DNA of 64,000 nt from Lachnospiraceae bacterium (GCA_017525525.1 JAFXSQ010000030.1:63-64062), one strand, 5' to 3'. Numbered from the stretch's first letter, positions 7,200-34,802 are shown. The notes: generated by a model from the sequence alone, not told the origin. Translations and numbers: made by a program.

Positions 7200-8735
7200 A
7201 TGGCGAACAAAACATTTGCGGCAATCTATGTGGGCTCGAGCGAGCTCAAAATGAAATGTTATGAGGTAAGCGGAAAGAAGAGCTTCAAGCTCATAGACCA
7301 GGTAGCCAAGACCATAGAGCTCGGCCGCGACACCTATAACCACGGAAGCATAAAGGCGGGAACGCTTGCTGATGTATGTGATACCCTTACGGGCTTTAAG
7401 AAGAAGATGAAGGAGTACCAGATTACCGAGTACAGAGCTTACGCCACCAGCGCGATAAGAGAGGCGGTAAATCAGGAACTGGTCCTCGATCACATAGAGA
7501 GAACGACAGGAGTTACCGTGAAGGTGCTTTCGAATTCCGAACAAAGATACATGATATTCAAGGGACTTGTGGCAAAATACGCGGATTTTCATCAGGTTGT
7601 GAGCAAGAATACCGCGTTTGTCGATGTCGGCGCGGGCAGTGTGCAGGTTTCGCTCTTTGACAAGAACAACCTGGTGCTTACCGAGAATATCCACATTGGC
7701 GCTGTCCGAATAAGGGAATATCTGGCCATGGCGGAAAAGGCCGGAAGATACGAGCAGGCGATTTCGGAGTATGTTGACAGCGATATAGCGAGCTTTAGAA
7801 ACATTTACCTTAATGATAAGGAAATTAAGAATATAATCGCCGTCGGTGATGTGGCGGAGATGGCGCAGTTCGTTATCCCCGAGCTTAAAGAAAAGGAAAT
7901 GATTACCAGAAAGCAGTTTGAGAAGTTCAACAGGAAGATTATCACTCTGCCACCGGAGCAGCTTGCTGAAAAGTTCGGGATACCATACGAGAAGGCAACG
8001 TTGATGCTTCCGAGCTTCATCATCTACGAGTCATTTCTTAATAACTGTAAGGCTGAAGTAATATATGTGCCGAATGTTGATTTCTGCGACGGTATTGTAA
8101 CATCTTACATGGATGAAGGAAGCCGCGTGGTGTTCAACCACAATTTTGAGGATGACATAATCGCTTCGGCAATGTATATAAACAGGCGTTATCGCTGCAA
8201 CAAGCAGCACACCGACAGGGTTGCGGCTTTTGCGCTTGCTCTCTTTGACGGCATGAAGAAGGTTCACGGCTTGGGACACAAGGAAAGACTTCAGCTTCAT
8301 ATAGCGGCCATACTGCATGAGTGTGGAAATTATATCAACTTAAACGACGGCGCCATGAATTCTTATTATATAGTGGCAAACAGCGAGATTATCGGACTTA
8401 CCCACAAGGAGCGCATGGAGGTTGCAAATGTTATCAAGTACAATCTCTTCTTCCTTCCGGCGAAGGAGAAGATAGCTGCTGAGCTCGGGACTGCTGATTA
8501 CATCGTGATTGCAAAGCTGGCGGCAATCTTGAGGATTGCAAATGTATTGGATAAAAGCCACACTCAGAAGATAGAGAATATTAATGTAAGCGTGAACGAT
8601 GACAGGCTTGTGATATCGGCAAAGACCTATGATGACCTTGCGCTCGAGACCGGACTCTTCGAGAGCAGAGCCGATTTCTTTGAGCAGATATACGGTATAA
8701 GACCGGTGCTTAGAACAAGGGAGACGCGATCATGA
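7200..8735 (+). CDS. ppx: exopolyphosphatase (Ppx/GppA family)
   Basis: 511 aa with an N-terminal actin-like ATPase fold (AAIYVGSSELKM..., DVGAGSVQVS) and a C-terminal HD-like helical domain. It lies immediately upstream of ppk. Confidence 0.85.
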   Translation: MANKTFAAIYVGSSELKMKCYEVSGKKSFKLIDQVAKTIELGRDTYNHGSIKAGTLADVCDTLTGFKKKMKEYQITEYRAYATSAIREAVNQELVLDHIERTTGVTVKVLSNSEQRYMIFKGLVAKYADFHQVVSKNTAFVDVGAGSVQVSLFDKNNLVLTENIHIGAVRIREYLAMAEKAGRYEQAISEYVDSDIASFRNIYLNDKEIKNIIAVGDVAEMAQFVIPELKEKEMITRKQFEKFNRKIITLPPEQLAEKFGIPYEKATLMLPSFIIYESFLNNCKAEVIYVPNVDFCDGIVTSYMDEGSRVVFNHNFEDDIIASAMYINRRYRCNKQHTDRVAAFALALFDGMKKVHGLGHKERLQLHIAAILHECGNYINLNDGAMNSYYIVANSEIIGLTHKERMEVANVIKYNLFFLPAKEKIAAELGTADYIVIAKLAAILRIANVLDKSHTQKIENINVSVNDDRLVISAKTYDDLALETGLFESRADFFEQIYGIRPVLRTRETRS

Positions 8736-8778
8736 CGAAGCAATCGTGCCATTACATATTATACGAGGAGGAGCGAGA

Positions 8779-10893
8779 ATGGATAAAGCGACGTTGAATA
8801 ATCCGGAAAACTACTATAACAGAGAGCTTTCCTGGCTGCAGTTTAATTACAGAATACTTGAGGAGGCGAGAGATAAGAGCATACCTCTTTTTGAGAGGAT
8901 GAAGTTCCTCGGGATAACCGAGAGCAATCTTTCGGAATTCTTTATGGTCAGGGTAGCTTCGCTGGTGGATCTTACCAATGCGGGAGTGGAAAAGACCGAT
9001 ATTGCGGGTCTTACCCCCAGGCAGCAGCTTGATTTGATAATTCCCGAGACAAAGAATATGACTAAGCAGCAGTATCAGACCTTGAACCGTACCATCCTTC
9101 CGGAACTTGCGGAGAGCGGGGTTAATCTTGTGAGGGATTATAACGAGCTTGATGATAAGCAAAAGAAATTCGCAGATCGATTTTTCATGAAGGAGGTCTA
9201 TCCTGTATTGACGCCCATGGCGGTGGACGCGTCAAGGCCCTTCCCGCTTATAGGCAACCGAACCCTTAATATAGGCGCGCTTGTCAGGGACAAGAAGAGT
9301 GATGTGGTGGATATCGCGACGGTTCAGGTTCCTTCCGTTCTGTCAAGGATAGTGGAGCTTCCGTCGGCGGGCGCCATGAGAACCGTTATGCTCCTTGAGG
9401 ATGTGATAAAGCAGAATTTGAATAAGCTTTTCCTTAATTACGAGATAGTCTGCGCGCACACCTACAGAATAATAAGAAATGCCGATCTCTCGATAGATGA
9501 GGATGAGGCGGCCGATCTTTTAAAGGAGATAGAAAAGCAAATCAGGCTCCGCGCATGGGGCGAGGTTATAAAGCTTGAGGTGGAGGCTGACATCAACAAG
9601 AAGCTTTTGAAAGAGCTTAAATCAAAGCTCGAGGTGGGCGATGCCACGGTTTTCAGCATCAACGGTCCGCTTGACCTTACATTTATAGGAAAGCTTGCGG
9701 GACTTTCGGGCTTTGATCATCTGAAGAATAAAAAGTTTACTCCTCAGCCTGTGCCGGGGATAGACCCCGACAGGAACCTTTTTGAACAGATTAAAGAAAA
9801 GGATATCTTCCTTCATCATCCGTATTATGAGTTTACGCCGGTTGTGAATTTTATCCGCCAGGCTGCTTCGGACCCGGATGTGCTTGCGATAAAGCAGACC
9901 CTTTACCGTGTGAGCGGTAATTCACCGATAGTTGCGGCTCTTGCGAAGGCAGCGGAGAACGGCAAGCAGGTAACGGTTCTCGTGGAATTGAAGGCCCGCT
10001 TTGACGAGGAAAACAATATCAACTGGGCGAAGACACTTGAGAAAGCAGGCTGTCATGTAATATACGGACTTGTGGGACTTAAGACACACTCTAAGATTGC
10101 CCTTGTGGTAAGGCGTGAGGAGGAGGGAATAAAGCGTTATGTCCACCTCGGAACCGGTAATTATAATGATATTACTGCAAGACTTTACACCGATACCGGA
10201 ATTCTTACCGCAAATGATAAGATAGGAGAGGATGCCACGGCTGTGTTCAATATGCTTTCGGGCTATTCCGAACCGCCGTCATGGAACAAGCTTTTGGTTG
10301 CGCCTATATGGATGAAGAAGAAATTCATATATCTAATAAACCGTGAAGCGCAAAATGCCAAAGCGGGCAAGGAGGCGCGCATAGTAGCCAAGATGAATTC
10401 GCTTTGCGATCCGGACATAATCAAGGCGCTTTACGAGGCTTCCTCCGCCGGAGTAAAGATAGAGCTCATAGTCAGAGGTATTTGCTGCTTAAAAGTCGGT
10501 GTTCCGGGACTTTCGGAGAATATCAGCGTTCGTTCCATAGTAGGAAACTTCCTTGAACATGCGAGGATATTCTACTTCCATAACGAAGGATTTGCGGACT
10601 GCTATATGGGAAGCGCTGACTGGATGCCGCGAAATCTTGATAAGAGAGTGGAGATAACCTTCCCGGTGGAGGATCCGGACGCGAAGGAAAGGGCGCTCAG
10701 CATCTTAAGAATACAGCTTAGCGATACGTTGAAGGCGCATATCATGCAGCCTGACGGATCTTATGTTAAGCAGGATTTGAGAGGCAAGGAAAAGCTGTCT
10801 GCGCAGGAGTTCTTTATGAAGGAGGCCGTAAACGCAGGAAAAAATGACGAAAAAAAGCCTGCCAGGGTCTTCGTTCCTCGTACAAGTGACTAA
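8779..10893 (+). CDS. ppk: polyphosphate kinase 1
   Basis: N-terminus YYNRELSWLQFNYRILEEA and two PLD-like HKD-type C-terminal domains (THSKIALVVRRE, HARIFYF). ATG 8779 is preferred over the ORF-track start at 8746. Confidence 0.93.
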   Translation: MDKATLNNPENYYNRELSWLQFNYRILEEARDKSIPLFERMKFLGITESNLSEFFMVRVASLVDLTNAGVEKTDIAGLTPRQQLDLIIPETKNMTKQQYQTLNRTILPELAESGVNLVRDYNELDDKQKKFADRFFMKEVYPVLTPMAVDASRPFPLIGNRTLNIGALVRDKKSDVVDIATVQVPSVLSRIVELPSAGAMRTVMLLEDVIKQNLNKLFLNYEIVCAHTYRIIRNADLSIDEDEAADLLKEIEKQIRLRAWGEVIKLEVEADINKKLLKELKSKLEVGDATVFSINGPLDLTFIGKLAGLSGFDHLKNKKFTPQPVPGIDPDRNLFEQIKEKDIFLHHPYYEFTPVVNFIRQAASDPDVLAIKQTLYRVSGNSPIVAALAKAAENGKQVTVLVELKARFDEENNINWAKTLEKAGCHVIYGLVGLKTHSKIALVVRREEEGIKRYVHLGTGNYNDITARLYTDTGILTANDKIGEDATAVFNMLSGYSEPPSWNKLLVAPIWMKKKFIYLINREAQNAKAGKEARIVAKMNSLCDPDIIKALYEASSAGVKIELIVRGICCLKVGVPGLSENISVRSIVGNFLEHARIFYFHNEGFADCYMGSADWMPRNLDKRVEITFPVEDPDAKERALSILRIQLSDTLKAHIMQPDGSYVKQDLRGKEKLSAQEFFMKEAVNAGKNDEKKPARVFVPRTSD

Positions 10894-11064: not shown

Positions 11065-11296
11065 CATCTACAGTCATGGCACAGGCCATGTCAGATTGTT
11101 AGTGCGCCGAATACGGCAAAGCCGCAAATTTAAGAGCGCACATGTTGGATTTCAGACGGTCGGGGCTGAGGTTGATTGTACATTTTGCACATACGCAATA
11201 TCCGCTTTGCGGGGAGGGGCGTACGGAATCTGTGAACAGGAAGCTTTAGTACCGATGCAGAAGAAAGCAACACACAGATTAAAGGAGGGTTTTTTT

Positions 11297-12769
11297 GTGA
11301 AGAAGTTCAAAAAGGCAATAGCTTTATCACTTTCACTTGCTATGGGTCTTTCACTCGCAGCTTGTGGTGACAAGAAGGAAGAGACTACTACAGCAGCTAC
11401 TACAGCAGCAGCTACAGAGGCTACGACAGAGGCAGCTCAGGATACTGAGGCTCCCGCTGAGACAGAGGCTCAGGACACAGAGGCTCCCGCTGAGACAGAG
11501 GCAGCAGCTGGCGCTGACTTCTCAGGCGACGGTAAGGTACTTAACATCTACTGCTGGAATGAGGAGTTCAAGTCAAGACTTACAGATCACTATCCGGGCT
11601 ACGAGAAGGTTGATGACACAACAGGTAAGATCGGTGATATCACTGTTAAGTTCAACATTACACCGAGTGAGAACAATGCTTACCAGAACAACCTTGATGC
11701 TACACTTGCTGAGCAGGCTGACGCAGCAGACGATGACAAGATCGATCTTTTCCTTGTAGAGGCTGACTACGCTCTTAAGTATGTAAATACTGATTACACC
11801 ATGAATGTTGCTGATCTCGGTATCACAGACGCAGAACTCGCTGATCAGTATCAGTATACAAAGGACGTTGTTACAAGCTCAGACGGAGCACTTAAGGGTG
11901 TTTCATGGCAGGGTTGCCCTGGTGTACTTATCTACAACAGAGCTATGGCCACAGAAGTGTTCGGCTCCGATGATCCGGCAGAGGTTCAGAAGAACTTCTC
12001 TGACTGGGGCAAGTTCAAGGAGTCAGCAAAGGCTCTTAAGGAAAAGGGCTACTATGTAAATGCTACAGTTAACGATGCATATCGTGTATTCTCTAACAAC
12101 GTATCTTCACCTTGGGTAGTTGATGGCAAGATAGTTATCGACCAGGCTATGAAGGATTGGGTTGACCTTTCTAAGGAGCTTGTTGATGCTGGCGAGACCA
12201 CAACCGAGGGACTTTGGTCAGATACATGGAACAAGGGCTTCATGAAGGATTCTGATCTTCCTACATTCTCATACTTTGGACCTGCATGGCTCATCGACTT
12301 CTGTATGGCAGCTGATGACGCAGGTTCAATCGCACATGATGGCGGCTGGGCTGCAACAGAAGGTCCTCAGGGCTTCTACTGGGGCGGTACATGGATCTGC
12401 GCTGCAACTGGCACAGACAACCCGGCTCTCGTTGCTGATATCATGAGACAGTTAACATGCAATCCTGACGTTATGAAAGAGATCGTAGTAGCAGATAACG
12501 ATTTCGTTAACAACAAGCCTACCATGGAAGCTATGGCACAGGATACAAGCTATGGCGATGCAATCCTTGGCGGTCAGAACGCACTTGCTATGTTCTGCGC
12601 AGGCGCTGACAAGATCGACCTTTCTAACATCAGCGTTTACGATCAGGGATGTAATGAGAAGTTCCAGCAGGCTATGAAGAACTACTTCGAGGGAACTTCA
12701 ACCTATGATGAGGCTCTTGAGGCATTCTACACAGACGTACAGACCACTTATCCTGAGCTTACTCACTAA
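11297..12769 (+). CDS. ABC transporter substrate-binding lipoprotein (carbohydrate, CUT1-like)
   Basis: A GTG start lies 7 nt after AAAGGAGGG. It has a signal peptide with lipobox LSLAAC, a Thr/Ala/Glu-rich linker containing a 33-bp tandem duplication (11438-11503), and a solute-binding fold. Two permease genes follow. Confidence 0.85.
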   Translation: MKKFKKAIALSLSLAMGLSLAACGDKKEETTTAATTAAATEATTEAAQDTEAPAETEAQDTEAPAETEAAAGADFSGDGKVLNIYCWNEEFKSRLTDHYPGYEKVDDTTGKIGDITVKFNITPSENNAYQNNLDATLAEQADAADDDKIDLFLVEADYALKYVNTDYTMNVADLGITDAELADQYQYTKDVVTSSDGALKGVSWQGCPGVLIYNRAMATEVFGSDDPAEVQKNFSDWGKFKESAKALKEKGYYVNATVNDAYRVFSNNVSSPWVVDGKIVIDQAMKDWVDLSKELVDAGETTTEGLWSDTWNKGFMKDSDLPTFSYFGPAWLIDFCMAADDAGSIAHDGGWAATEGPQGFYWGGTWICAATGTDNPALVADIMRQLTCNPDVMKEIVVADNDFVNNKPTMEAMAQDTSYGDAILGGQNALAMFCAGADKIDLSNISVYDQGCNEKFQQAMKNYFEGTSTYDEALEAFYTDVQTTYPELTH

Positions 12770-14666: not shown

Positions 14667-14693
14667 TACGGGTATCAGATAAAACCTTTTCGA

Positions 14694-14726
14694 GTAGGAG
14701 GGGAGCTTCCCCTCCTATTCGTATTT
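14694..14726 (+). terminator. intrinsic terminator after the ABC permease genes
   Basis: TAGGAGGGGA-GC-TTCCCCTCCTA followed by a T-rich stretch. Confidence 0.7.
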
Positions 14727-15803: not shown

Positions 15804-15890
15804 GATTTATTGGATAAGATAATACCTTGCGTATTTCCATGTGCTTGGTTATAATCATAATAGTTATAATTTTGTTTTGGGGGAAAAGCT

Positions 15891-18440
15891 ATGAGTATTA
15901 TGATATCTGATAAGCCTTCGCGCGACGAGTTGATCTCTTGTTTCAACGATACGGTCAGTCTTTCACTTAATGATACCGCAATTAAAGAAAATACCCAAAG
16001 GATGGCGGCTGCAAGCAGCGTATATCCCGAGGGTTTCATATCCGGACGGCTTGAGAATCCCGGCATAAGGGCTGAACGTCCCGAAATTGATGTAATAGAG
16101 GGAACGACTTTTGATGCGGCGAGGGATGCCTTAGCTTCGGGAAGAACCCGCAAGGTGGCCGTGCTTAATTTTGCGAACCCTCATACTCCGGGCGGGGGAG
16201 TGACAAGGGGAGCCATGGCTCAGGAGGAGTGTCTTTGCAGAAGCAGTAACCTGTACCAGGGGCTTATCGGTGAGCTGCAGAAGGCTCAGTATTACGATTA
16301 TCACAGGAATATGAATGACAATATCTTCTCGGACAGAATAATCTATTCTCCGGGTGTTCTTGTGTTCAAGGACGATTCTGCATGTCCGAAGCTTATGCCG
16401 AGGGAGAGCTGGTTTTTTACGGATGTGATAACCTGTGCGGCTCCTTATATGGCTGATACTACATTTATCAATGCGGATGTCATTAACAATATATTTGTTT
16501 CGAGAATTCTCAATATCTTCAGGGTTGCCTTTGATAACGGGGTGGATACGCTTGTGCTCGGAGCCTTCGGCTGCGGAGCGTTTATGAATTCGCCTTCTGT
16601 TGTGGCAGCTGCGTTCAGACAGGTTATCGACAATATTGAAAGCTATAACGGAATCGGCGTAAACAGGGTAATCTTCGCCATAAAAAAGAGCCGCGGGGAG
16701 GACAGGATATGTCCGAATCTGCAGGCCTTTATGAATGAGTTTTACGCGGCTTCTTCAGCTGTGCTTCGTTCGTCGGATGATGAAGTGGAGAATATCGGAG
16801 CGAGGACTGAAGGCGGCTGGATGGAAGGGTATGTAATGCCGGACGGCACTGAGCTTGTCAGTATGAACGACAGGATGAATTTCGGTCGCCTGAAGTGGAA
16901 CAATCCATATTGCGCTAAGAATATATCTATATACGGTGATTCCATAAGCACCCTGGCCGGCTACAATCCGGAGGGCTTTAACGTCTTCTATGAAGGGAGC
17001 TACTGCGAAATCGCAGGTGTAAAGGAGCCTGCGGATACCTGGTGGGGAAGGATAATAGGCTTTTTGGGCGCAAAGCTTCTGGTAAATAATTCGTGGTCGG
17101 GCTGCCTTGTTACCGCCGAGGAGGGCAAGGGTGACGGCTTTCCCTCAGGCTGCAGCAAAAAGCGCATAGATATGCTCTGTGTGCCTCATAAAATAAATAA
17201 GGAATTTGATGTAAATCCCGATGTGATTATTATATATATGGGTACAAACGACTGGGCTTACGGAATACAGCCGGCTGCCTTTAAGGATGCCTATGACCGC
17301 ATGCTTAACGGGATAAGCAATAAATATCCAGAGGCAGTAGTATGGTGTTGTACCCTCTGTCCGTCAAAGATATCTGTCAAGCCTCAATTTGTATTCCCGA
17401 CGGAGCCGGCGGGATACAGTATAGATACCTATAACGACATTATTCGAGAGAGAACGGAAGCGTACGATTACGAGCTTATCGATTTTGCGGCGCTTAACGA
17501 GCCCTATGATTCCATAGACGGAAGTCACCCGAATGCGGATGGCATGAAGACGCTTACGGAGATGATAGCGAAGGAAATGAGAATGGTAACCGGCATAAAT
17601 GCGGACGGAACAAGATTTGACTCCTCCGCACCGGCAAAGGACAAGTATAACGGGAAAAAAATCGCCGGCAGGTACAGCTTCAAGAAATTTCTGTGGACAG
17701 ACGGACTCGAGCAAAGGTTCAAGGCTTTGGATACCGAAGAAAGAACAGAGTGCATGATTTCAGTGCCGGAGAATAAGGATGACGGCCATGTCGAGTATTT
17801 CAAGCGAAAGTTTGAACTGCTAAAGGTGCTTCGGTCAGATAAGCTGATCAGGGTGATTGACTGCGTGGAGGCTGATTCGACGGTGTATATGATTGAGGAG
17901 TACAGGGAACACAGAAGACTTCTTGAGATCGACAAAGAGGCAAAGAATAACCATAATATGCTCAGCCATAAGGGCGTGCTTAAATACATGACGGATATTA
18001 CCGAGGCATGCGCATATCTGCACAGTCAGTATCCGCCGCTTGTTCACAGGTGCATTACGCCGAAGTGCATAGTTGTTTGCAACGACGGGGTTGCCAGACT
18101 GGCGGGGCTGTACTCCGCGTTAAGGAGCGATGATGCTAGCGATTTGCTTATGGGAAGGAAGGGGTTTGAAGCTCCCGAGCAGTATTTCCTTCCGGTTTCG
18201 CCCTCGGTGGATGTGTATGCCATAGGCAGAACCATGCTTTCACTGCTTACGGACGTCGATATGCTTTCCGACAGGGATAGCGAGGGAAGATCGTCGGTTA
18301 CGGCGGCGGTGCTCAGGAAGAGGTATGGTGTTGACAAAAAGTTCGCTAAGATAGTGGAGAAATGTATCGAACCGGATGTCAAAAAAAGGTATAAGGATGC
18401 GAATGAGCTTCTCGGTGAATTGAAGAAACTGAACATATGA
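15891..18440 (+). CDS. three-domain protein: bacterial-type PARG-like macrodomain (TIGR02452/DUF2263) + SGNH/GDSL hydrolase + degenerate protein-kinase-like domain
   Basis: 849 aa.
- Residues ~85-245 carry NFANPHTPGGGVTRGAMAQEECLCRSSNLY (GGG-X7-QEE) and LVLGAFGCGAF.
- Residues ~343-562 carry SGNH blocks GDS(349-351), SWSGC, GTND and DGSH.
- Residues ~590-849 are kinase-like with the APE motif retained, but HRD is HRC, DFG is LAG, and there is no Gly loop or VAIK Lys. Confidence 0.8.
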   Translation: MSIMISDKPSRDELISCFNDTVSLSLNDTAIKENTQRMAAASSVYPEGFISGRLENPGIRAERPEIDVIEGTTFDAARDALASGRTRKVAVLNFANPHTPGGGVTRGAMAQEECLCRSSNLYQGLIGELQKAQYYDYHRNMNDNIFSDRIIYSPGVLVFKDDSACPKLMPRESWFFTDVITCAAPYMADTTFINADVINNIFVSRILNIFRVAFDNGVDTLVLGAFGCGAFMNSPSVVAAAFRQVIDNIESYNGIGVNRVIFAIKKSRGEDRICPNLQAFMNEFYAASSAVLRSSDDEVENIGARTEGGWMEGYVMPDGTELVSMNDRMNFGRLKWNNPYCAKNISIYGDSISTLAGYNPEGFNVFYEGSYCEIAGVKEPADTWWGRIIGFLGAKLLVNNSWSGCLVTAEEGKGDGFPSGCSKKRIDMLCVPHKINKEFDVNPDVIIIYMGTNDWAYGIQPAAFKDAYDRMLNGISNKYPEAVVWCCTLCPSKISVKPQFVFPTEPAGYSIDTYNDIIRERTEAYDYELIDFAALNEPYDSIDGSHPNADGMKTLTEMIAKEMRMVTGINADGTRFDSSAPAKDKYNGKKIAGRYSFKKFLWTDGLEQRFKALDTEERTECMISVPENKDDGHVEYFKRKFELLKVLRSDKLIRVIDCVEADSTVYMIEEYREHRRLLEIDKEAKNNHNMLSHKGVLKYMTDITEACAYLHSQYPPLVHRCITPKCIVVCNDGVARLAGLYSALRSDDASDLLMGRKGFEAPEQYFLPVSPSVDVYAIGRTMLSLLTDVDMLSDRDSEGRSSVTAAVLRKRYGVDKKFAKIVEKCIEPDVKKRYKDANELLGELKKLNI

Positions 18441-18456: not shown

Positions 18457-19212
18457 TTGGCTGAAGCGAGAGATATACTGGAAAAACTTCAAAAAGGCGA
18501 GATAAGCACGGATGAAGCGCTAAGCTTCTTTAAGTCGGAACCCTTCAGGGAGCTGGATTTTGCAAAGCTCGATACCCACAGGGGCGTAAGAAGCGGTTTT
18601 CCGGAGGTTGTATTCTGTGAGGGAAAGCCGGACGGGTACCTTAAAGAGATATATCTTAAGCTGTTTGAAGCGGACGGCAGGGTGTTCGGGACAAGGGCCT
18701 CAAAGGAGCAGTATGAGCTTGTAAAGCCGGTAATACCGGAACTTTGCTTTGACCCTGTGTCAAGGATAATGAAGGCAGATGATGCGCCACTTGAAAAAAA
18801 AGGCTTGATTGTGGTTGCCTGCGCGGGGACTGCGGATATCCCGGTTGCCGAGGAGGCTGCGCAGACTGCGGAATACTTCGGGACATTTACCGAGCGCGTG
18901 TACGATGTAGGCGTGAGCGGGCTTCACAGGCTGCTTTCCAAAGTTGAACTCCTTCAGAAGGCAAACTGCGTGGTTGCGATAGCCGGAATGGAGGGAGCGC
19001 TGGCAAGCGTTATAGGCGGACTGGTGTCAAATCCCGTAATTGCGGTTCCTACCTCCGTGGGCTACGGAGCAAACCTTGGAGGACTTTCTGCGTTGCTTAC
19101 CATGATAAATTCCTGCGCAAACGGGGTATCGGTTGTCAATATAGATAACGGCTACGGCGCAGGTTATCTGGCGACCCAGATAAACAGGCTGGCGGTGAAT
19201 AAAAAATTATAA
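18457..19212 (+). CDS. larB: nickel-pincer cofactor biosynthesis protein LarB (PurE-like NaAD carboxylase/hydrolase)
   Basis: 251 aa with a TTG start 16 nt after the upstream stop. Motifs AGTADIPVAEEA, AGMEGALASVIGGLV, VPTSVGYGA and VVNIDNGYGAG are typical of LarB. Confidence 0.85.
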   Translation: MAEARDILEKLQKGEISTDEALSFFKSEPFRELDFAKLDTHRGVRSGFPEVVFCEGKPDGYLKEIYLKLFEADGRVFGTRASKEQYELVKPVIPELCFDPVSRIMKADDAPLEKKGLIVVACAGTADIPVAEEAAQTAEYFGTFTERVYDVGVSGLHRLLSKVELLQKANCVVAIAGMEGALASVIGGLVSNPVIAVPTSVGYGANLGGLSALLTMINSCANGVSVVNIDNGYGAGYLATQINRLAVNKKL

Positions 19213-19254: not shown

Positions 19255-20310
19255 ATGCGTGTTTTTTACAACCGGGAGGGGGATTTTAATTTGATCATAA
19301 GGGAATCTTTTGAGGCGCGGGAGCATGAGATATTAAGCCCCCATGCCGCTTTTTCGGATGAATCTCGCGGTCGTGACCACTTTGAAGAAAAGTGTGACTT
19401 GAGGACCGATTACCAGAGGGACAGGGACAGGATAATACATTGCAAATCCTTCAGGCGTTTAAAGCATAAAACGCAGGTTTTTCTTGCGCCCTCGGGAGAT
19501 CATTACAGAACAAGACTCACGCACACGCTTGAGGTGTCGCAGATAGCCAGAAGCATAGCAAAGGCGTTAAGGCTGAATGAGGATTTGACAGAGGCTATCG
19601 CTTTGGGGCATGATCTTGGGCACACACCCTTTGGGCATGCGGGAGAGAGAGCTCTTTCGAGATGTACGAAGAAATACGCCGACAAAGCATTTCGACACAA
19701 CGAACAGAGCGTGCGCGTGGTTGAGGCTTTGGAAAAAAGCGGAAAGGGCCTTAACTTAACCTGGGAGGTAAGGGATGGCATCCTGAATCATCAGACAGCA
19801 GGTAAACCCGCAACATTAGAAGGAAATATTGTAAGGCTTTCGGACAAGATTGCCTACATAAATCACGATATAGATGATGGAATAAGAGCTGGGCTGATGA
19901 CCGAGGAATCCCTTCCGGAGACATGTACGGAGATTTTGGGACACAGCACCAGGGACAGGATTAATACCCTTGTTCACGGAATCGTATCTAACAGTCTCGA
20001 CAGGGAGGTTGTAAGCCTTCCGGAGGAGCAGCAGAAGGCGCTTTATGACTTGAGGGCATTTATGTTCTCAGACCTTTATACCAATCCTGTGGCCAAGGGC
20101 GAGGAGGTTAAAGCAGAGAAGCTTATAACCATGTTGTTTGAGGCCTATATGGAGGATATAGATAAGCTTCCGGAGAAAAGGGCGGAGCTGATAAAGGCGG
20201 GCTCAGATAAGGTAACGGTAATTACGGACTATATCGCGGGAATGACGGATAATTACGCTGTAGAGTGCGCAAAGGAGCTGTTCCTGCCGATGTCCTGGCA
20301 GAGAGCGTGA
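19255..20310 (+). CDS. dGTPase-like HD-domain triphosphohydrolase
   Basis: 351 aa with RTRLTHTLEVSQIAR and LGHDLGHTPFGH motifs. It sits upstream of dnaG-sigA, as in many Firmicutes. Confidence 0.85.
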   Translation: MRVFYNREGDFNLIIRESFEAREHEILSPHAAFSDESRGRDHFEEKCDLRTDYQRDRDRIIHCKSFRRLKHKTQVFLAPSGDHYRTRLTHTLEVSQIARSIAKALRLNEDLTEAIALGHDLGHTPFGHAGERALSRCTKKYADKAFRHNEQSVRVVEALEKSGKGLNLTWEVRDGILNHQTAGKPATLEGNIVRLSDKIAYINHDIDDGIRAGLMTEESLPETCTEILGHSTRDRINTLVHGIVSNSLDREVVSLPEEQQKALYDLRAFMFSDLYTNPVAKGEEVKAEKLITMLFEAYMEDIDKLPEKRAELIKAGSDKVTVITDYIAGMTDNYAVECAKELFLPMSWQRA

Positions 20311-27163: not shown

Positions 27164-29053
27164 CTAGTTCTTTGCCTGAATAAAGCTTATAAACTCATTG
27201 TGCGGCAGGGGCTTGGAGAAGTAGAACCCCTGTATGTAGTCTACGCCGAGCGCAGCCATGCTGTCGAGCTGCTCCTTGGTTTCGATTCCCTCGGCGACTA
27301 TCTTAAGTCCGAGCTCCTTGATCATGCGTATTGTGGCGCTCATAACAACCTTCGCGCGCGAGTTGGTAAAGTACTCCTGTGTCATGGTTCGGTCGAACTT
27401 TACTATGTCGACGGGCATGTCCACGATATAGTTCAGGTTGGACTCGCCGGTTCCGAAATCATCGAGAGAGAAGGTGCAACCGAGTTCTTTTAGGTTGTGC
27501 ATATTGTCGAGCAGGATGTTCCTCTGGTTTAAAGTGGAGGTCTCCGTGATTTCCAGGTTGATTGTCTCGGGAGGAAGTCCCAGCTCTTTCATAATATTCT
27601 TGAAATTATCTGCTAATTTTTCATTCTCGCACTGTGCTACGGAGAGGTTGATTTCCACATACTGTATGCCGTGCTTGCGCATGTGAGAATCCTTTAATGC
27701 GTGGCAGGTCTTTTCGAAGACTCGCTCACCGATTTTTTCTATGAGGCCGTACTCCTCGGCGACGGGTATGAAGCGTCCAGGCATCACTATTCCGCCGTCA
27801 CGATCTCTTAAGCGGGCGAGAGCTTCGGCAGAGACGAATTTCTTGTCTGCAATAGAGTAGATAGGCTGATAGAAGACCTCGACTCTGTCTTCTGCGATGG
27901 CATCCTTGATGAGGTTAACCATTTGCTGAAATTCCCTGATGTGACTTCCGGTCTCGGCATTCAAAAGAATGGTGTTCTCCTCGTCTCCGGTGTCATCCTT
28001 GTAATACTGGTACACGGCGTAGAATTCCTCGGAGGACTCAAACACGAGTGAGTCCGGTGCGTACATGAAGACTGCAGGTATGTGCTCGGATTGTCCGTGC
28101 CAGTCCTTTTCAAAGGTCTGCTTTATTATGTCTAAGTTAAATGCGCTCTCGATTTCATAGCTGTCAGACCTGTTCTTGTCGTAGATAAGCATGAAGCTGT
28201 TGCCTGTGCACCTGAACAGCTTCGCGTTCGGAAAGCTTCGAAGGAAGTTGGTCATCTCGATTAAGATATCGTTCTCGACATCTGCGGCAAGCTTCCATTC
28301 TGCCGGGGTGGTAATTACTATTGTTGAGAAAGGAGTTTTGTTGATGTACAGCTGCTTTAAGTATTCCCAAAGTGTCGCGGTTGAGAAGATACCCGTTAAT
28401 CTGTCAAGGTAGGCCTCGGGGTTTTCAAGCTCGGCATAGAGTATGGTAAGTCCGGTGGCTGAGCCAAATCCGACCAGCAGGAGCCCCGGATTGATGAACT
28501 GAATTCCGGCCGCTATAATCTCTAACATCATCCACGCGCGTACAGCCTTTTTTCTGTGTCTGTTTAGTGTCTTTGAGTAATAAATTGTAAATAAGAGTGT
28601 TGATATAATGAAATACGGAGCAAAGATGTATGTCGCTACATCTGCCGGACCGTAGCTGTAGATTACACGGCCTTCATGGTAATAGCTGATTGGAAGCGCC
28701 AATATAACGATTGCTCCTATAAAGAATACAATAAATTGCGCATATCTGAACTTCTTGCTCATTTTAAGTTTGGGTATGTCGCTGAAGGTATAGACCATGG
28801 CCATGTAGGAAACGGTCACAAGAAATACAAGGTAGAGCTTGGAGACGGCATCCACAAGCAGCGTAGGAAGCTTATCGGAATTGACAATCACAAAGATTGA
28901 TGATATATCCAGGATAACGCATAAGGTATTCAAGACAATTGATAACAGAAAGATCCGCTCGCTGTAAAGGCCGACACGGTCATGCTTTGAAGCAAAATAA
29001 ATCAGCAGCAGATCGATTACAAGTCCGCACATCTGAACTTCGATATTAAGCAT
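27164..29053 (-). CDS. membrane sensor with degenerate GGDEF and intact EAL domain (c-di-GMP phosphodiesterase)
   Basis: About seven N-terminal TM helices. The GGDEF position reads GNSFM. The EAL signature is intact (EALARL, NLEITE, DDFGTGES, EGIET, QGFYFSKP). The start at 29053 (MLNIEV) follows a G-rich SD; the ORF track extends to 29098 through a T10G8 tract. Confidence 0.85.
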   Translation of the reverse strand: MLNIEVQMCGLVIDLLLIYFASKHDRVGLYSERIFLLSIVLNTLCVILDISSIFVIVNSDKLPTLLVDAVSKLYLVFLVTVSYMAMVYTFSDIPKLKMSKKFRYAQFIVFFIGAIVILALPISYYHEGRVIYSYGPADVATYIFAPYFIISTLLFTIYYSKTLNRHRKKAVRAWMMLEIIAAGIQFINPGLLLVGFGSATGLTILYAELENPEAYLDRLTGIFSTATLWEYLKQLYINKTPFSTIVITTPAEWKLAADVENDILIEMTNFLRSFPNAKLFRCTGNSFMLIYDKNRSDSYEIESAFNLDIIKQTFEKDWHGQSEHIPAVFMYAPDSLVFESSEEFYAVYQYYKDDTGDEENTILLNAETGSHIREFQQMVNLIKDAIAEDRVEVFYQPIYSIADKKFVSAEALARLRDRDGGIVMPGRFIPVAEEYGLIEKIGERVFEKTCHALKDSHMRKHGIQYVEINLSVAQCENEKLADNFKNIMKELGLPPETINLEITETSTLNQRNILLDNMHNLKELGCTFSLDDFGTGESNLNYIVDMPVDIVKFDRTMTQEYFTNSRAKVVMSATIRMIKELGLKIVAEGIETKEQLDSMAALGVDYIQGFYFSKPLPHNEFISFIQAKN

Positions 29054-29457
29054 GCCCGTCACCCCCCCCAAAAAAAAAATTATTGATATAGTCACCATAA
29101 ACTAAGTAATTATAACATATTAATTCGAAAAATGATAGACATAATTCGACCTTTTGCACAATAAAAGTAGCCTTTTGTGGAGCTTTAAAGAGAAAATCAC
29201 TATAAATAACATAAGATTTTACGCAGCTTGTTAATTCTGTATATTTTCAAAGGGAAAATGTAAAATATTTGTTAAAAATTACAAAAAAATGCGTGACAAA
29301 TAGAAATATATAATTTATAATATAAATACTTATACAAATCATAAGTACTTATATAAATCGCTTGAACGGATACGTGATTTGTGAAGAAAATGTCGATTTT
29401 TGTACATTTGAGGGATACATTTTCAAGCATGTCATATAGGCGAAAGGAGGAGGGCCT

Positions 29458-30174
29458 ATGAGCGACGGCAATAAGATTAATCTTCTGCAGATGCAGAAAT
29501 ACTTTGAAGGTCAGATGCAAAGGATCCGCACGATAAGCGATCTGGAGCTTTCCGAGAATGATTTCAAGAGCCTTGGTATAAAGCTCAGGTCTCTCTGCTT
29601 TTTTACCGGAAGTGAGAATGACATAGAGGATTTCATGCTCTCCATAGCGGTTTATAGCTCTTATGCGCTTATCTACGGTAATGTGGGTAGTGATTTCGAG
29701 AGTATCGTGTGGATGGTCATGAATAACAGTCAGTATATGGAGCGCATGCACTTATCGATGCTCAAGAATGTGTACGATAGCTACGGATTGAACACCTTTG
29801 ATGTGGACGATGCAGATCTTATGACATCAGTGAGGAAGCTTGTGGCATTGCATGCGGGCATTCCGAACTGCGATAAGAACATGTTCTACGACATCTTAAG
29901 CGACTATTTAAGCTATCGCGATGTAGCTACCATGCTGGCCGAGATTTACGCAAGGCTTCCCGAGAGGAGCAGGTATATCTACGGTTTCATGGACAAGAAT
30001 GAGAGAGAGCGCATGATTCTTGAAGCAAGATCTCTTGTAAATGATGTGGTGGACGGTATACTCGACAGGAACGAGCTTGTGGAAAAGCACAGTTCGCTTT
30101 CATTAAGTCTGATAGACAGATGTCTTATGTGGAATGAGACGGGAAATCAGATTATAAGATACAGAGTATATTAA
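29458..30174 (+). CDS. hypothetical protein (orphan, helical)
   Basis: 238-aa ORF with a strong RBS (GGAGGAGGG, 3 nt, ATG). It is preceded by ~350 bp of very AT-rich DNA and ends 1 nt before the 3' end of rnpB. No motif recognised. Confidence 0.6.
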   Translation: MSDGNKINLLQMQKYFEGQMQRIRTISDLELSENDFKSLGIKLRSLCFFTGSENDIEDFMLSIAVYSSYALIYGNVGSDFESIVWMVMNNSQYMERMHLSMLKNVYDSYGLNTFDVDDADLMTSVRKLVALHAGIPNCDKNMFYDILSDYLSYRDVATMLAEIYARLPERSRYIYGFMDKNERERMILEARSLVNDVVDGILDRNELVEKHSSLSLSLIDRCLMWNETGNQIIRYRVY

Positions 30175-31648: not shown

Positions 31649-32377
31649 ATGGAAAAGGGCAGAGCGAAGAATATAATAGACAATATGTATGACACGATAG
31701 ATAACGCAACCTCGGTGCCGCTGTCGACGGGTAAGGTCATGGTTGACAGGGATGAGCTTCTGTTGATGCTGAGGTCCTTGGAAGATGCGATAGATACTGA
31801 GTTGAAGAGTTATCGCGAGGTTACGGACAAAAAGGGCAAGATACTGAGTGATGCCAAGGCTGAGGCAGATGCTATAATTGAGGAGGCTGAGAAGTCGGCG
31901 AGCCGCATCAGGGTCAGCAAGGCGGTTGGCAGGAGCGGAAAGCTTATCAACGAAGATTTGTCGTCGGCAGATAAAGAGGCTTTGAGGACTGCGGGCGATA
32001 TATATGCGGCGTCACTGATAGTAACCGATGAGATGCTTACCGAGGTCAATGACGTGCTTGAGCGAGCTCAGGAGGAGGTTATAAAGCAATACGAAAATAT
32101 GATGAAGATAATCGACGAGAAGACCGCCCAGGTTGAGAAGAACAAGGCGGAACTGATGTCGAGCCTTAAAGATATGAGCAAGGAGGAGAGGTATGAGCAA
32201 TTGTTAGAGCTCAGTCAGCTTCTATCAAATGAGCTTTACAGGGAGAGAAAGAAGGCGCTTGCCGCTGAGAATGCCGTAAAGAGGGTGCATATATCCGCGG
32301 GACATATAGATGATTACGGTCGAAAGACGGATGTTAAGACTACTGAATTAGACAGGCATATAAAAAACGGTGAATGA
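31649..32377 (+). CDS. coiled-coil protein, unknown function
   Basis: 242 aa, Glu/Lys/Ala-rich heptad-like sequence throughout. The stop is embedded in a bidirectional terminator. No enzymatic motif. Confidence 0.55.
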   Translation: MEKGRAKNIIDNMYDTIDNATSVPLSTGKVMVDRDELLLMLRSLEDAIDTELKSYREVTDKKGKILSDAKAEADAIIEEAEKSASRIRVSKAVGRSGKLINEDLSSADKEALRTAGDIYAASLIVTDEMLTEVNDVLERAQEEVIKQYENMMKIIDEKTAQVEKNKAELMSSLKDMSKEERYEQLLELSQLLSNELYRERKKALAAENAVKRVHISAGHIDDYGRKTDVKTTELDRHIKNGE

Positions 32378-32400: not shown

Positions 32401-32482
32401 TATGCATACGCAATGTAATTTGCTGCTTTGCAGCACGCGTGCGGCGCAACGCGTAGAGGGGCTGCGCCTTCCCTAAGCGATT
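32401..32482 (+). repeat. family-3 terminator-attached repeat
   Basis: TATGCATACGCAATGTAATTTGCTGCTTTGCAGCACGCGTGCGGCGCAACGCGTAGAGGGGCTGCGCCTTCCCTAAGCGATT. It abuts the stop of the convergent GGDEF gene. Confidence 0.85.
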
Positions 32483-34802
32483 ATTGTTTATCTTTCTCTA
32501 CATTCTTTCTCTTATTCTTCTTGTTCTCGTAGAGCGCCACGTCCGCGGAGTGGAGCACAAGCTCGATATTAAGCGAAGGCGCGCAGGTAAATACGCTGGT
32601 ACCAAGGCTTAAATCAATGAAGTAAGGCTTGCCGCTTTCCTCATTAAGGTCGTCGTCGTAGCGGCGTATGCGGTCAAGTATCTTCTCGGGTTTATCGTCT
32701 CTTTCGACAAAGGTAAAGGCTACGAACTCGTCACCGCCGATTCTTCCGACGATATCATCTTCGTCAAGGCTGTCCGTGAGTATGTCGGCTATGCTCTTTA
32801 TCGCAAAGTCTCCGTCGCTGTGGCCGAACTTGTCGTTGACCTGCTTCAGGTTATCCATGTCCGCGAAGATGAGCATCGCGCGTTTGCCTTCGTTCTCGTG
32901 AGCGTTGACCAAGCGCTGTACGCTGTCCAAGAAACCGCGGCGGTTGTTGATGCCGGTCAGAGCGTCGGTTACCGAGAGCTTGTTCAAAAGCTGGTTTTTC
33001 TGGTTTAATTCCTCGGCTGACTGAACGAGCTGATCCTGCGCCTTTAACTGCTGCTGCATGAGCGAGATGAAATTCAGCGAGGTCGCAAGCTGAAGGCTGT
33101 TCGGGTATATGTTACCGAACTGGGCTATGTCTATCTCTCCGACAAAAAGTCCATAGTGTATATTGTTGGTGAAAAGCGGAGTGATGACTAAGGTTCTTCT
33201 TCTGTCCAAAGGTGTGTAGGCATTGAAGAATATGTCCGATGAGGAGATTATTCTTTCGTTGCCGGTAAGGAATGTCGTAATGCCATTGTCGTTGGCTGCC
33301 TGTAGCAGCAGAGTCTTCGGAATCTTCCAGGAACCGTCAGGCATGAGCCTGATCGGATCATCGTAAATGTAAAGATAAGAGCTAATGAAGCCCGAATTCT
33401 GCAGCTTATCCATAATGAGTCTGAAGCAGGACTCCTCGTCATCGCTGTACGCAAGCGTGTCTCTGGTTATGTACATAGAGGACCAGATGGAATTCTTGTA
33501 TTCCCTCTCTGTCATGAACAGGGTGTTGGAGATGCGCAGCATCAATGTTGACATTACATCGGAGAAGCATGCCGCAACCTGGTTGCTCAGCTCTTCGTCT
33601 TCAATAAGATCCTGAATCATGATTGAGAATTCGTTTATAACGTAGCTTAAGCGGTCTATGCTGAAGTATAACCTGAACAGAGGCTTTTCAAGAAGCTTTA
33701 TCAGCATATCCCTGACCGGCTTGCTTTCGGGAGCCTTGCCCGATATAACCGGTTGCAGGATTGGATTGAGCAATGCGGTAAACGCTTCCTCCAACTCGTC
33801 ATGGAGGAAAGATTCTTTGAAATTCTCTAATGTATGGTCGAGAATGAATTTTCTGATTTTACTTAATTCCGATGAAGAAGAAATCTTCTCGTGCTTGGCG
33901 CAAATCTGTCTTGTGCGGCACTCTCCGCAACCGCAGGAGGAGCGGACCACCAGGCTTGAGCTCAGTGTATTTATGTCGGTAAAACCAATCTCGATAAGGT
34001 CTATGGTCTGCTTAACCGCATTGTAGCCCATATCGATTATCTGGTTATGAACTGTGGTAAGCTGGGGATCCAAAATCATGGATACCGGTGAATCGTCATA
34101 ACCGGTAACCAAGATATCCCTGCCTATCTCAAGACCTCTGGACTTAATAGCGGTATAACCGCCGGAGGCCATCTGATCATTTGCGAAAACCAGGGCGTCG
34201 ATCTCGGGATGTGCATCTAAGAGATTGCCTACAAGTTCAACCGTGAACTCGGAGAAATCACCGTAGGCGATGAGGTCTTCATCCACGGGGATGTTGTTAT
34301 CGATAAGTACCTGCTTGTAGATCTCCAAGCGTTCCATGGCGTCGGCGTTCTCCTGACGTCCGCTTACGAAACCTATGTGGCTGCATTTATGATCCTTTAT
34401 GAGGTGTTCGACAGCGAGCCTCATACCCGTCACACCCTCGGTGTAAAGGTAGGGATAGCCGGGAACCTCAATCTCTATGGTAAGAATCGGTATATCGAAA
34501 TTCGAGAGGAATTCTTTGATGTTGGTCTGAGAGAGGAAGCTTCCGATGGAACCGATTGCAACGATGATTGCATCAAGGTTCTGCTTTGAAGCATAGTAGT
34601 AGATGGAGTTATACTGATAATCGAAACGGGCGTTCATAGGATCGTCATAGGCAGCGTTCATGTACATGCCGGGGAATACGATGAGGTTTACATCGAATTT
34701 CTTTGCAGCATAATCAACGCCCTTACAGACCTCGTACGCATAGTCGTTATCTACGTGGCAGGTGAAAAATCCTATGTTTAGTTTTGAGTTCGCCTTTTTC
34801 AA
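32481..34802 (-). CDS. cytoplasmic LacI-type periplasmic-binding-protein-fold sensor fused to GGDEF diguanylate cyclase
   Basis: 773 aa, TTG start after GGAGG, no signal peptide. The N-terminal ~280 aa are a sugar-binding PBP fold (FANDQMASGGYTAIK, VTGYDDS). There is a Cys cluster CGCGECRTRQIC, an unassigned ~290-aa middle region, and a C-terminal GGDEF domain (DALTGINNRRGF, RIGGDEFVAF). Confidence 0.85.
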   Translation of the reverse strand: MKKANSKLNIGFFTCHVDNDYAYEVCKGVDYAAKKFDVNLIVFPGMYMNAAYDDPMNARFDYQYNSIYYYASKQNLDAIIVAIGSIGSFLSQTNIKEFLSNFDIPILTIEIEVPGYPYLYTEGVTGMRLAVEHLIKDHKCSHIGFVSGRQENADAMERLEIYKQVLIDNNIPVDEDLIAYGDFSEFTVELVGNLLDAHPEIDALVFANDQMASGGYTAIKSRGLEIGRDILVTGYDDSPVSMILDPQLTTVHNQIIDMGYNAVKQTIDLIEIGFTDINTLSSSLVVRSSCGCGECRTRQICAKHEKISSSSELSKIRKFILDHTLENFKESFLHDELEEAFTALLNPILQPVISGKAPESKPVRDMLIKLLEKPLFRLYFSIDRLSYVINEFSIMIQDLIEDEELSNQVAACFSDVMSTLMLRISNTLFMTEREYKNSIWSSMYITRDTLAYSDDEESCFRLIMDKLQNSGFISSYLYIYDDPIRLMPDGSWKIPKTLLLQAANDNGITTFLTGNERIISSSDIFFNAYTPLDRRRTLVITPLFTNNIHYGLFVGEIDIAQFGNIYPNSLQLATSLNFISLMQQQLKAQDQLVQSAEELNQKNQLLNKLSVTDALTGINNRRGFLDSVQRLVNAHENEGKRAMLIFADMDNLKQVNDKFGHSDGDFAIKSIADILTDSLDEDDIVGRIGGDEFVAFTFVERDDKPEKILDRIRRYDDDLNEESGKPYFIDLSLGTSVFTCAPSLNIELVLHSADVALYENKKNKRKNVEKDKQ

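Follow-up and report, generated by a model that had tools for sequence, protein, structure and literature searches.

A predicted PARG–SGNH–pseudokinase protein of a rumen Lachnospiraceae bacterium belongs to a large Clostridial family with a link to type VII secretion

Results

A three-domain hydrolase–pseudokinase fusion

The gene described here lies at 15891..18440 on the plus strand of a stretch of 64,000 nucleotides from a Lachnospiraceae bacterium (GCA_017525525.1, JAFXSQ010000030.1:63-64062), which is referred to as the window throughout; all features below are on the same strand unless marked otherwise. It starts with ATG, contains no internal stop and, with the stop codon included in these coordinates, encodes a protein of 849 aa that is predicted to join a macrodomain of the poly(ADP-ribose) glycohydrolase (PARG) type, an SGNH esterase and a pseudokinase. 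Its relatives form a large family in Clostridia, most of them with a live kinase and many of them in loci that point to type VII secretion, and the window protein appears to be an atypical, derived member of this family. An earlier note on this DNA had proposed the same three domains, and the domain scan, the search for the architecture in other genomes and the structure prediction that it had suggested as checks all supported this assignment, with profile matches above the curated cut-offs and every quoted motif at its place. In the full-length AlphaFold2 model, which drew on 68 homologues (mean predicted local distance difference test score, pLDDT, 80; predicted template modelling score, pTM, 0.60), three folded units are connected by disordered linkers at residues 287–313 and 565–584, and these linkers together with the pTM value suggest a beads-on-a-string protein with no fixed domain arrangement. 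Neither a signal peptide (the N-terminus is polar) nor a transmembrane segment was found in the 849-aa protein, for which the maximum Kyte-Doolittle mean over 19 residues is 1.46, and the protein is consequently predicted to be soluble and cytoplasmic, in agreement with the earlier note.

The N-terminal domain (aa 10–286; 15918..16748) was assigned by profiles, fold and alignment as a bacterial-type PARG macrodomain with an N-terminal helical extension. It matches TIGR02452 (residues 29–270, E-value 3.4e-54, 184.1 bits at a cut-off of 50) and PF10021 PARG_cat_microb (residues 28–161, 1.7e-34, 119.7 bits at a cut-off of 23.5). The signature GGG-X7-QEE is located at aa 101–113 (nt 16191–16229), with G101-G103, seven residues and Q111-E112-E113, and the diphosphate-binding loop LVLGAFGCGAF at aa 221–231 (nt 16551–16583), including GAFGCGAF at 224–231. 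Homology extends to the PARGs of Thermomonospora curvata (3SIG, 1.6e-28) and Deinococcus radiodurans (3e-25), with the catalytic loop aligned residue for residue and the QEE of the window protein opposite that of the T. curvata enzyme; likewise, a Foldseek comparison of the model with the PDB gave template modelling (TM) scores of 0.79–0.82 to T. curvata 3SIH/3SIG, with helices at residues 11–41. In an alignment of 148 full-length family members (the window protein, 120 sequences of a protein search and 27 taken from genome loci), the PARG catalytic residues are unchanged in 147, and G101-G103, Q111-E112-E113 and G224/G227/G229/F231 are invariant or nearly so. As judged from these motifs, every catalytic and ADP-ribose-binding element of the domain appears to be intact.

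The central domain (aa 336–564; 16896..17582) was identified as SGNH/GDSL hydrolase by its match to PF13472 Lipase_GDSL_2 (residues 349–553, 2.5e-15, 57.8 bits at a cut-off of 32.9), its motifs and a fold search. Block I is represented by GDS 349–351, block II by G404 within SWSGC 401–405, block III by GTND 451–454 and block V by DGSH 543–546, and G349-D350-S351, G404, N453, D543 and H546 show no or almost no variation across the alignment. The domain is thus predicted to be a serine esterase with an intact Ser-Gly-Asn-Asp-His set, and the claim of the earlier note that the catalytic residues of both hydrolases are preserved is borne out by the motifs and by the alignment. The domain model (pLDDT 72) matches 4M8K/4NRD at E-values of 3e-9 to 1e-8 as well as many SGNH esterases; the best fold matches, 4M8K, 4NRD and 3BZW, have no known function, and acetylesterases and TesA come next. 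Similarity to intracellular SGNH acetylesterases and TesA-type lysophospholipases, which have the same fold and catalytic residues, is generic only (TM 0.5–0.7, 13–24% identity), and named carbohydrate esterase profiles (AxeA1, AxeC2, CE2) scored about 15 bits against cut-offs of 500–700.

Linker 1 (aa 287–335; 16749..16895) is partly disordered, with pLDDT below 50 at residues 287–313, and its C-terminal helix runs into the SGNH domain. Linker 2 (aa 565–589; 17583..17657) is predicted to be disordered (pLDDT below 50 at 565–584); its position is filled in longer relatives (e.g., P0005, P0006 and P0091; labels of this kind are our own handles) by Zn-ribbon, FHA and SseB-like inserts.

A complete kinase fold with all catalytic residues lost

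The C-terminal domain (aa 590–849; 17658..18437) was assigned to the Hanks-type kinases by PF00069 Pkinase (residues 633–835, 2.4e-17, 63.6 bits at a cut-off of 31.7), alignments and Foldseek, which gave TM scores of 0.75–0.80 to PknA/PknB across about 275 columns. The earlier note had aligned this region to a kinase C-lobe; the kinase homology holds, but the fold comprises both lobes and is complete. Its Gly-rich loop is degenerate (LWTDGLEQ 601–608, with W, D and G at the glycine positions), the beta3 Lys is replaced by Ser (CMISV 621–625) and the alphaC Glu by Lys. In the catalytic loop HRCITPKC (719–726), the HRD Asp is C721, the Lys T723 and the Asn C726, and RLAGL 736–740 stands where DFG is expected, with Gly for Asp and a two-residue deletion. 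APE is kept at 761–763 (APEQ 761–764). Like its four closest relatives, the window protein has a residue of the series Ser/Ala, Cys, Thr, Cys/Ser and Gly at the positions of beta3 Lys, HRD Asp, Lys, Asn and DFG Asp, respectively. Judged by these substitutions, the domain is a pseudokinase that would lack the residues for binding of ATP and Mg as well as for phosphate transfer, as had been proposed. As a side observation, the two cysteines of this loop (C721 and C726; 18045–18068) lie at the former Mg-ATP site in the window clade; a new metal or redox site at this place would be speculation, and the relative P0003 has Ser at the second position.

Compared with the 77%-identical orthologue L001, the rate of non-synonymous substitution (dN) is 0.14 for the PARG, 0.10 for the SGNH and 0.17 for the pseudokinase domain, and synonymous sites are saturated (proportion of synonymous differences, pS, 0.71–0.82), which limits the comparison between domains to dN and amino-acid identity. 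Low dN at saturated synonymous sites suggests that the pseudokinase is maintained by selection; all three domains seem to be under purifying selection, with conservation of the pseudokinase only slightly weaker than that of the two enzymes.

Two other classifications of the domain were considered and rejected. None of the catalogued bacterial pseudokinase families (PMC12599244) is Clostridial or fused to PARG or SGNH, and the HRC/LAG pattern matches none of them. Matches to the anti-phage defence kinases of PADLOC (mad6, PD-T4-6, MkoA, PglW, Stk2) span the kinase fold only, are weaker than those of the live-kinase relatives, and have no partner genes beside them.

A widespread PARG–SGNH–kinase family in gut and rumen Clostridia

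The protein search returned 1,149 matches at E <1e-5 among 90%-identity clusters, and in all 120 of the top matches listed the domains follow in the order PARG–SGNH–kinase. The window protein shares 36–49% identity with members of 850–890 aa across 98–100% of the length. When GTDB was scanned with one genome for each species, relatives were located in 234 species, nearly all of them Clostridia of gut or rumen (Lachnospiraceae, Oscillospiraceae, Ruminococcus, Eubacterium, Faecousia), with a few Gastranaerophilales. The triple fusion, which had looked unusual to the earlier note, is therefore a recurrent architecture that is common in metagenomes. Full-text literature searches for a PARG–SGNH–kinase fusion found no description of it, and the five clusters with NCBI records that were checked bear no family name. 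On the basis of profiles and alignments, we consider this a large, conserved Clostridial PARG–SGNH–(FHA)–kinase family in which the domain families are known and the architecture would be new.

Members fall into two length classes, one of about 850–890 aa without insert and one of about 1,000–1,450 aa with Zn ribbon, FHA and SseB-like domain between SGNH and kinase. A live kinase is the normal state: in 125 of the 148 aligned members (84%), the full set of beta3 Lys, HRD Asp, Lys, Asn and DFG Asp is present together with a normal Gly-rich loop and APE. The dead kinase is a derived state of the small window clade and of at least five further lineages that have independently lost catalytic residues (L037/40/41, P0004, P0109, L003 and L029). 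Most members moreover end in a conserved basic-hydrophobic tail, LPxKxGxFxKLFxKK (e.g., P0005, P0006, P0025), with the variants …LPKPKGIFGKLFGKK or …LPPKKFLFNKLFT, which looks similar to an amphipathic helix for membrane targeting or to a recognition peptide; this tail is missing in the window clade and in L037/40/41.

Among 80 fetched loci, at least 22 encode PARG–SGNH–kinase, 28 PARG–SGNH alone (about 18 of these as complete open reading frames, ORFs), four PARG–kinase, one SGNH–kinase and 19 PARG alone. In two of the loci with PARG–SGNH alone (L016 and L019), a separate kinase gene follows directly, which suggests that the PARG–SGNH and kinase modules cooperate. PARG–SGNH is the stable core of the family and the C-terminal Hanks kinase its usual partner.

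Relatives are found in type VII secretion-like clusters

Recurrent neighbours of the family were collected by clustering of flanking ORFs followed by Pfam checks. They include WXG100 proteins, an FHA-FtsK/SpoIIIE ATPase (EssC-like) and a TPR protein, as well as a MacroD-type macrodomain (Macro) like that of O-acetyl-ADP-ribose deacetylases. A small vWA protein, ARH, PP2C and another Ser/Thr kinase recur, too. Maps of the loci revealed a repeated block of EssC, small ORFs, TPR, WXG-like, WXG100, the family gene, Macro and vWA, next to a second locus type with PP2C, kinase and a giant surface protein. The block can be written as (AAA_31)–YukD–EssC–WXG100–…–TPR–WXG100–[Macro–vWA]–PARG/SGNH/kinase and was seen in L014, L019, L020, L044, L052, L082, L084, L086, L088 and L089. 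This arrangement suggests a Clostridial type VII secretion variant with the soluble PARG–SGNH–kinase protein as its last gene.

Annotated records outside the window clade gave the same picture, with seven of seven look-ups in such clusters. The genes for P0037, P0004, P0073, P0071 and P0089 are the distal ones of EssC–WXG100-type clusters (with YukD, TPR and a second WXG100 in some), and CHAP, Mbeg1-like lipase, Macro, vWA and NUDIX genes surround them. P0059 stands beside DUF4176, DUF5344 and an Mbeg1-like phospholipase, and P0091 is preceded by a DUF6382-FHA gene and followed by PP2C, kinase and giant protein genes. As an internal control, hidden Markov models built from the neighbour clusters were used to compare the locus classes of the same scan, with flanks of up to 10 kb on each side. 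WXG100 or EssC occurred in the flanks of 21 of 50 PARG–SGNH(–kinase) loci and of one of 21 PARG-only loci (Fisher p = 0.0017, odds ratio 14), Macro in 11/50 versus 0/21 and vWA in 10/50 versus 0/21. As a clue to function, the strong association of the family with type VII secretion clusters comes first. It was invisible to the earlier note. The surroundings of the window gene itself lack such clusters, which are present in the loci of relatives only.

The window clade and its housekeeping locus

A near-copy of the gene with 99.4% nucleotide identity is present on an independent contig (L081), orthologues in L001 and L085 share 77–78% identity, and intact ORFs at 77–99% identity occur in five or more independent assemblies. 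Recurrence of the same uninterrupted ORF in independent assemblies rules out an assembly fusion of separate genes, an alternative that the earlier note had raised. Horizontal transfer was likewise rejected: the GC content of the gene (0.47–0.49) is the same as that of its flanks, and synteny is kept across the clade. The window protein shares domain order and full-length homology with the family but lacks its typical traits, namely the live kinase, the tail and the YukD–EssC–WXG100 locus. Taken together, its sequence features describe a small rumen clade with dead kinase, no FHA insert, no tail and a housekeeping locus, which is probably best regarded as an atypical, derived offshoot.

Within the 64-kb window, no homologues of WXG100, EssC, Macro, ARH, vWA or PP2C were detected. 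The gene order is clpX, folate genes, ppx, ppk1, a sugar ATP-binding cassette (ABC) system, a DUF624/MusI-like gene, the PARG–SGNH–pseudokinase gene, larB, a housekeeping dGTPase, dnaG, rpoD, trmK and NIF3, and the same housekeeping order recurs in three further assemblies of the clade (L081, L001, L085). The gap of 87 nt between the DUF624 gene and the start codon holds a Shine-Dalgarno sequence (GGGGGAA) and a TATAAT box; a consensus scan and reading of the sequence place the probable own promoter and ribosome-binding site at 15834..15890, where TTTCCA-16-CATAAT plus the TATAAT box form a putative promoter-like site by consensus match only. Further upstream, a terminator-like hairpin with a 14-bp stem and eight G-C pairs (14691–14721) directly follows the second and last ABC permease gene and divides the sugar transporter genes from DUF624 and the fusion gene. 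Of the two co-transcription partners considered in the earlier note, the sugar ABC genes are therefore unlikely, in view of the predicted hairpin and promoter-like site; co-transcription with larB is plausible, since the gap of 16 nt contains nothing terminator-like.

larB (18457..19212) was identified by the LarB equivalog NF033503 (279 bits at a cut-off of 175). LarB takes part in nickel-pincer cofactor synthesis and acts on NaAD, an NAD-related dinucleotide. The adjacency of both genes is kept in L081, and a polysaccharide deacetylase gene lies between them in L001 and L085; larA, larC and larE were not seen among the window genes scanned. In view of the extra gene in two orthologous loci and the lack of other lar genes in the window, we treat the neighbourhood of larB as synteny and not as a functional link. 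The dGTPase gene (19255–20310) matches the PADLOC dGTPase model (5.7e-82), but the housekeeping equivalog NF002327 scores better (501 bits, above cut-off) and the position before dnaG-rpoD likewise suggests a housekeeping role; an anti-phage function was therefore rejected.

Several further genes of the window were recorded. Heading the two ABC permease genes is a 557-aa ORF (11096–12769) without Pfam or NCBIfam match, presumably a divergent solute-binding protein by its position, which contains a short repetitive GCTGCTGTAGTA stretch near 11384–11409. The adjoining ppx (exopolyphosphatase) and ppk1 (polyphosphate kinase) genes occupy 7200–10893, upstream of the sugar transporter. Genes of c-di-GMP turnover are found on the minus strand at 27164–29098 and 32481–34802, the first for a phosphodiesterase of the EAL type and the second for a GGDEF cyclase with a fused sensor domain of the periplasmic sugar-binding type. 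A secreted-type glycanase of 1,231 aa with GH16, three CBM4_9 and ChW repeats (55491–59186) fits a Clostridial host that degrades fibre in the rumen or gut, and three ORFs of 238–299 aa (29458–30174, 31649–32377 and 41149–42048) have no Pfam match at E <1e-5.

Discussion

The N-terminal domain of the window protein shares the catalytic loop, the GxxGxGxF diphosphate loop and the N-terminal helices with bacterial-type PARGs such as those of T. curvata (3SIG), D. radiodurans (DrPARG, 5ZDB) and Streptomyces coelicolor (SCO0909), at TM scores of about 0.8. The characterised enzymes are, however, single-domain proteins of about 250–280 aa, a difference rightly pointed out in the earlier note, whereas here the PARG makes up the N-terminal third of an 849-aa fusion with an SGNH esterase and a kinase fold. 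Bacterial PARGs hydrolyse poly(ADP-ribose) (PAR) as well as the 2′-OH ADP-ribosylation of RNA made by RhsP2, and they protect cells from this toxin (PMC11833690, PMC8120803), although the physiological roles of these widespread enzymes are called enigmatic by the field (PMC11833690). A parallel to the fusion is offered by the “all-in-one” erasers that combine ARH3-like and MacroD-like domains (Perina et al., 2014, PMC4245714). There, too, one bacterial protein unites two hydrolase domains in which every catalytic residue is conserved, which suggests a sequential removal of the ADP-ribose modification. Unlike in these fusions, the second domain of the window protein belongs to the SGNH serine esterases, a fold that is not known among ADP-ribose hydrolases, and a third, kinase or pseudokinase, domain is added.

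With respect to the C-terminal domain, EssB/YukC and the catalogued bacterial pseudokinases (ActPs1-3, GLW, CP1, DYD, DLHK; PMC12599244) likewise feature a conserved kinase fold in which all three catalytic motifs are degraded, which points to a role as scaffold. A link to type VII secretion is likewise common to EssB and the typical members of the family described here, but EssB is a transmembrane core component in type VII secretion systems (T7SS) of type b (T7SSb). The window protein has no transmembrane helix after the pseudokinase and no T7SS genes in its 64 kb, and hence differs from EssB/YukC.

A recent survey of T7SS variants described kinases, PPM phosphatases, FHA and vWA proteins in new subtypes of Clostridia and other Bacillota (Garrett et al., 2024, PMC11217815). 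Typical members of our family resemble these components (e.g., the TscD/TsdD/TsjD kinases, TsxF PPM phosphatases, the DUF6382-FHA protein TsfJ and the vWA protein TscE) in that their genes lie in YukD–EssC–WXG100 clusters and code for Hanks kinases, frequently with FHA, and vWA, PP2C and DUF6382-FHA genes are found near their loci as well. The T7SS kinases of that survey are, however, membrane proteins with N-terminal kinase, whereas the proteins described here are soluble and combine a C-terminal kinase with PARG and SGNH. No kinase was found for T7SSf in the survey, and its text does not mention PARG (PMC11217815). For the live kinase and FHA of typical members, the threonine-phosphorylation pathway PpkA–PppA–Fha1 of the type VI secretion system provides a comparison, as do the suggestions that have been put forward for the new T7SS variants.

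Based on these data, the explanation to which we give somewhat better than even odds (about 0.55) is that the window protein acts as a two-site hydrolase on ADP-ribose conjugates, with the pseudokinase as docking module, kept by an atypical offshoot of a T7SS-linked family. By analogy with characterised bacterial PARGs, its PARG domain would hydrolyse ribose-ribose O-glycosidic ADP-ribose linkages, and PAR chain ends as well as 2′-O-ADP-ribosylated RNA or nucleotides are candidate substrates. The SGNH domain could cleave an ester on the same substrate or on its product, so that the pair would erase an ADP-ribose-based modification in two steps. The pseudokinase would have given up signalling and may act by docking or allosterically, guiding both hydrolases to a substrate or to a partner protein. 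Judged from related systems, it is probable that live kinase and FHA place this hydrolase chemistry under a threonine-phosphorylation control of secretion in the parent family, and the window clade would have kept the hydrolase function only. More tentatively, the family as a whole could be a PARG/esterase-coupled kinase component of a Clostridial T7SS from which the window gene was uncoupled as an eraser; we regard this as possible, but doubtful at present.

Several points weigh against the proposed two-site eraser. The link to secretion clusters holds for the relatives, and the window gene has no such genes in 64 kb. The evidence for a coupling of SGNH activity to ADP-ribose is the conserved fusion, and the nearest SGNH structures are uncharacterised. 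The long disordered linkers of the model speak against a fixed composite active site. PARP, ART (ADP-ribosyltransferase) or sirtuin genes were found neither among the neighbours of annotated family loci nor, by Pfam scan, among 30 neighbouring and wider-window gene products. Finally, a neighbour-joining tree sets the window clade on a long branch together with another dead-kinase lineage and does not show it to be nested within the live-kinase lineages.

Among the other explanations considered, an enzymatic immunity function overlaps in part with the two-site eraser. The protein would be a detoxifier of broad range against contact-dependent toxins that come in from outside: the PARG would reverse ADP-ribosylation of RNA or protein made by a toxin, the SGNH domain would counter the damage of lipase toxins as an esterase or lysophospholipase, and the live kinase would raise the alarm, with the window copy persisting as a constitutive stand-alone enzyme. 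Bacterial PARGs indeed shield Escherichia coli from the ART toxin RhsP2 (PMC11833690), and ARH-type, ADP-ribose-removing immunity to ART toxins delivered by T7SS provides a precedent (PMC3482391). The family neighbours include MacroD-type, ARH and NUDIX genes as well as Mbeg1-like phospholipases, a kind that T7SS secrete, TesA-type lysophospholipases are among the SGNH fold neighbours, and the basic-hydrophobic tail of typical members could bind the membrane. However, no ART toxin gene was seen beside annotated family members, immunity proteins are usually small and specific for a cognate toxin, and the window copy has lost the tail and resides in a housekeeping locus without toxin or secretion genes, so that we rate immunity as the main function as rather unlikely. 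The window locus itself could hint at a role in carbohydrate metabolism, with the SGNH domain of the clade as intracellular esterase for acetyl- or acyl-oligosaccharides that serves the adjacent sugar ABC and DUF624 genes, similar to the intracellular SGNH acetylesterases of Firmicute polysaccharide-utilisation clusters, and with PARG and pseudokinase as passengers. The two ABC permease genes and the DUF624/MusI-like membrane protein gene lie upstream, in an arrangement that is kept in L085, the polysaccharide deacetylase gene is directly downstream in L001 and L085, CE2-type acetylesterases, Est24 and AlAXEase appear among the SGNH fold neighbours, and the genome encodes fibre degraders (e.g., GH16-CBM4_9-ChW). 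This role is nevertheless improbable, as the PARG–SGNH fusion is kept across hundreds of species in secretion-cluster contexts without sugar transporters, the catalytic residues of both hydrolases are co-conserved across the 148 members, the strong hairpin stands between the permease genes on one side and DUF624 with the fusion gene on the other, and the named xylan esterase models scored far below their cut-offs (15 bits against 500–700).

The earlier note had favoured an acylated ADP-ribose as substrate. In such a case, the macrodomain would bind, e.g., O-acetyl-ADP-ribose made by sirtuins, and the SGNH domain would deacylate it under regulation by the pseudokinase. The physical union and co-conservation of an ADP-ribose-binding and an esterase domain would fit such a scheme, as would the neighbouring larB, whose substrate is an NAD-related dinucleotide; the larB adjacency is, however, not kept in L001 and L085, and the nearby window gene products that were scanned include no sirtuin. 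MacroD-type macrodomains already deacetylate O-acetyl-ADP-ribose, and since family members often have a separate gene of this type beside them, an SGNH deacylase is less needed. The strictly conserved Glu-Glu pair of the PARG would be needless for pure binding as well. We found no supporting evidence for this idea and give it poor odds; overall, the observation of the earlier note was confirmed and its interpretation partly supported. Lastly, the gene of the window clade might be a decaying remnant, out of its secretion cluster and heading for loss without specific function. Loss of kinase catalysis, FHA insert, C-terminal tail and secretion-cluster context would be in line with decay, but an ORF that is intact in all those independent assemblies, low dN in every domain at saturated synonymous sites, intact hydrolase catalytic residues and a good ribosome-binding site with a promoter-like site make this scarcely credible.

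If the proposed coupling of the family to T7SS is correct, its members may represent the “missing” kinase of T7SSf-like clusters, and an ADP-ribose-based, and possibly ester-linked, eraser would be coupled to threonine-phosphorylation control, e.g., to sense or reverse an ADP-ribosylating attack and to switch secretion on. The repeated and independent death of the kinase with retention of its fold would moreover constitute an abundant bacterial pseudokinase lineage that is absent from current catalogues (PMC12599244). The genomic address of the family, which spans hundreds of gut and rumen species, points to machinery of interbacterial competition. In this context, the window protein, having kept the hydrolases only, might give clean access to the hydrolase chemistry and to a physiological role of bacterial PARGs, and the family opens hypotheses on the targets of these enzymes, on the part of SGNH domains in the erasure of ADP-ribose and on the regulation of Clostridial T7SS variants.

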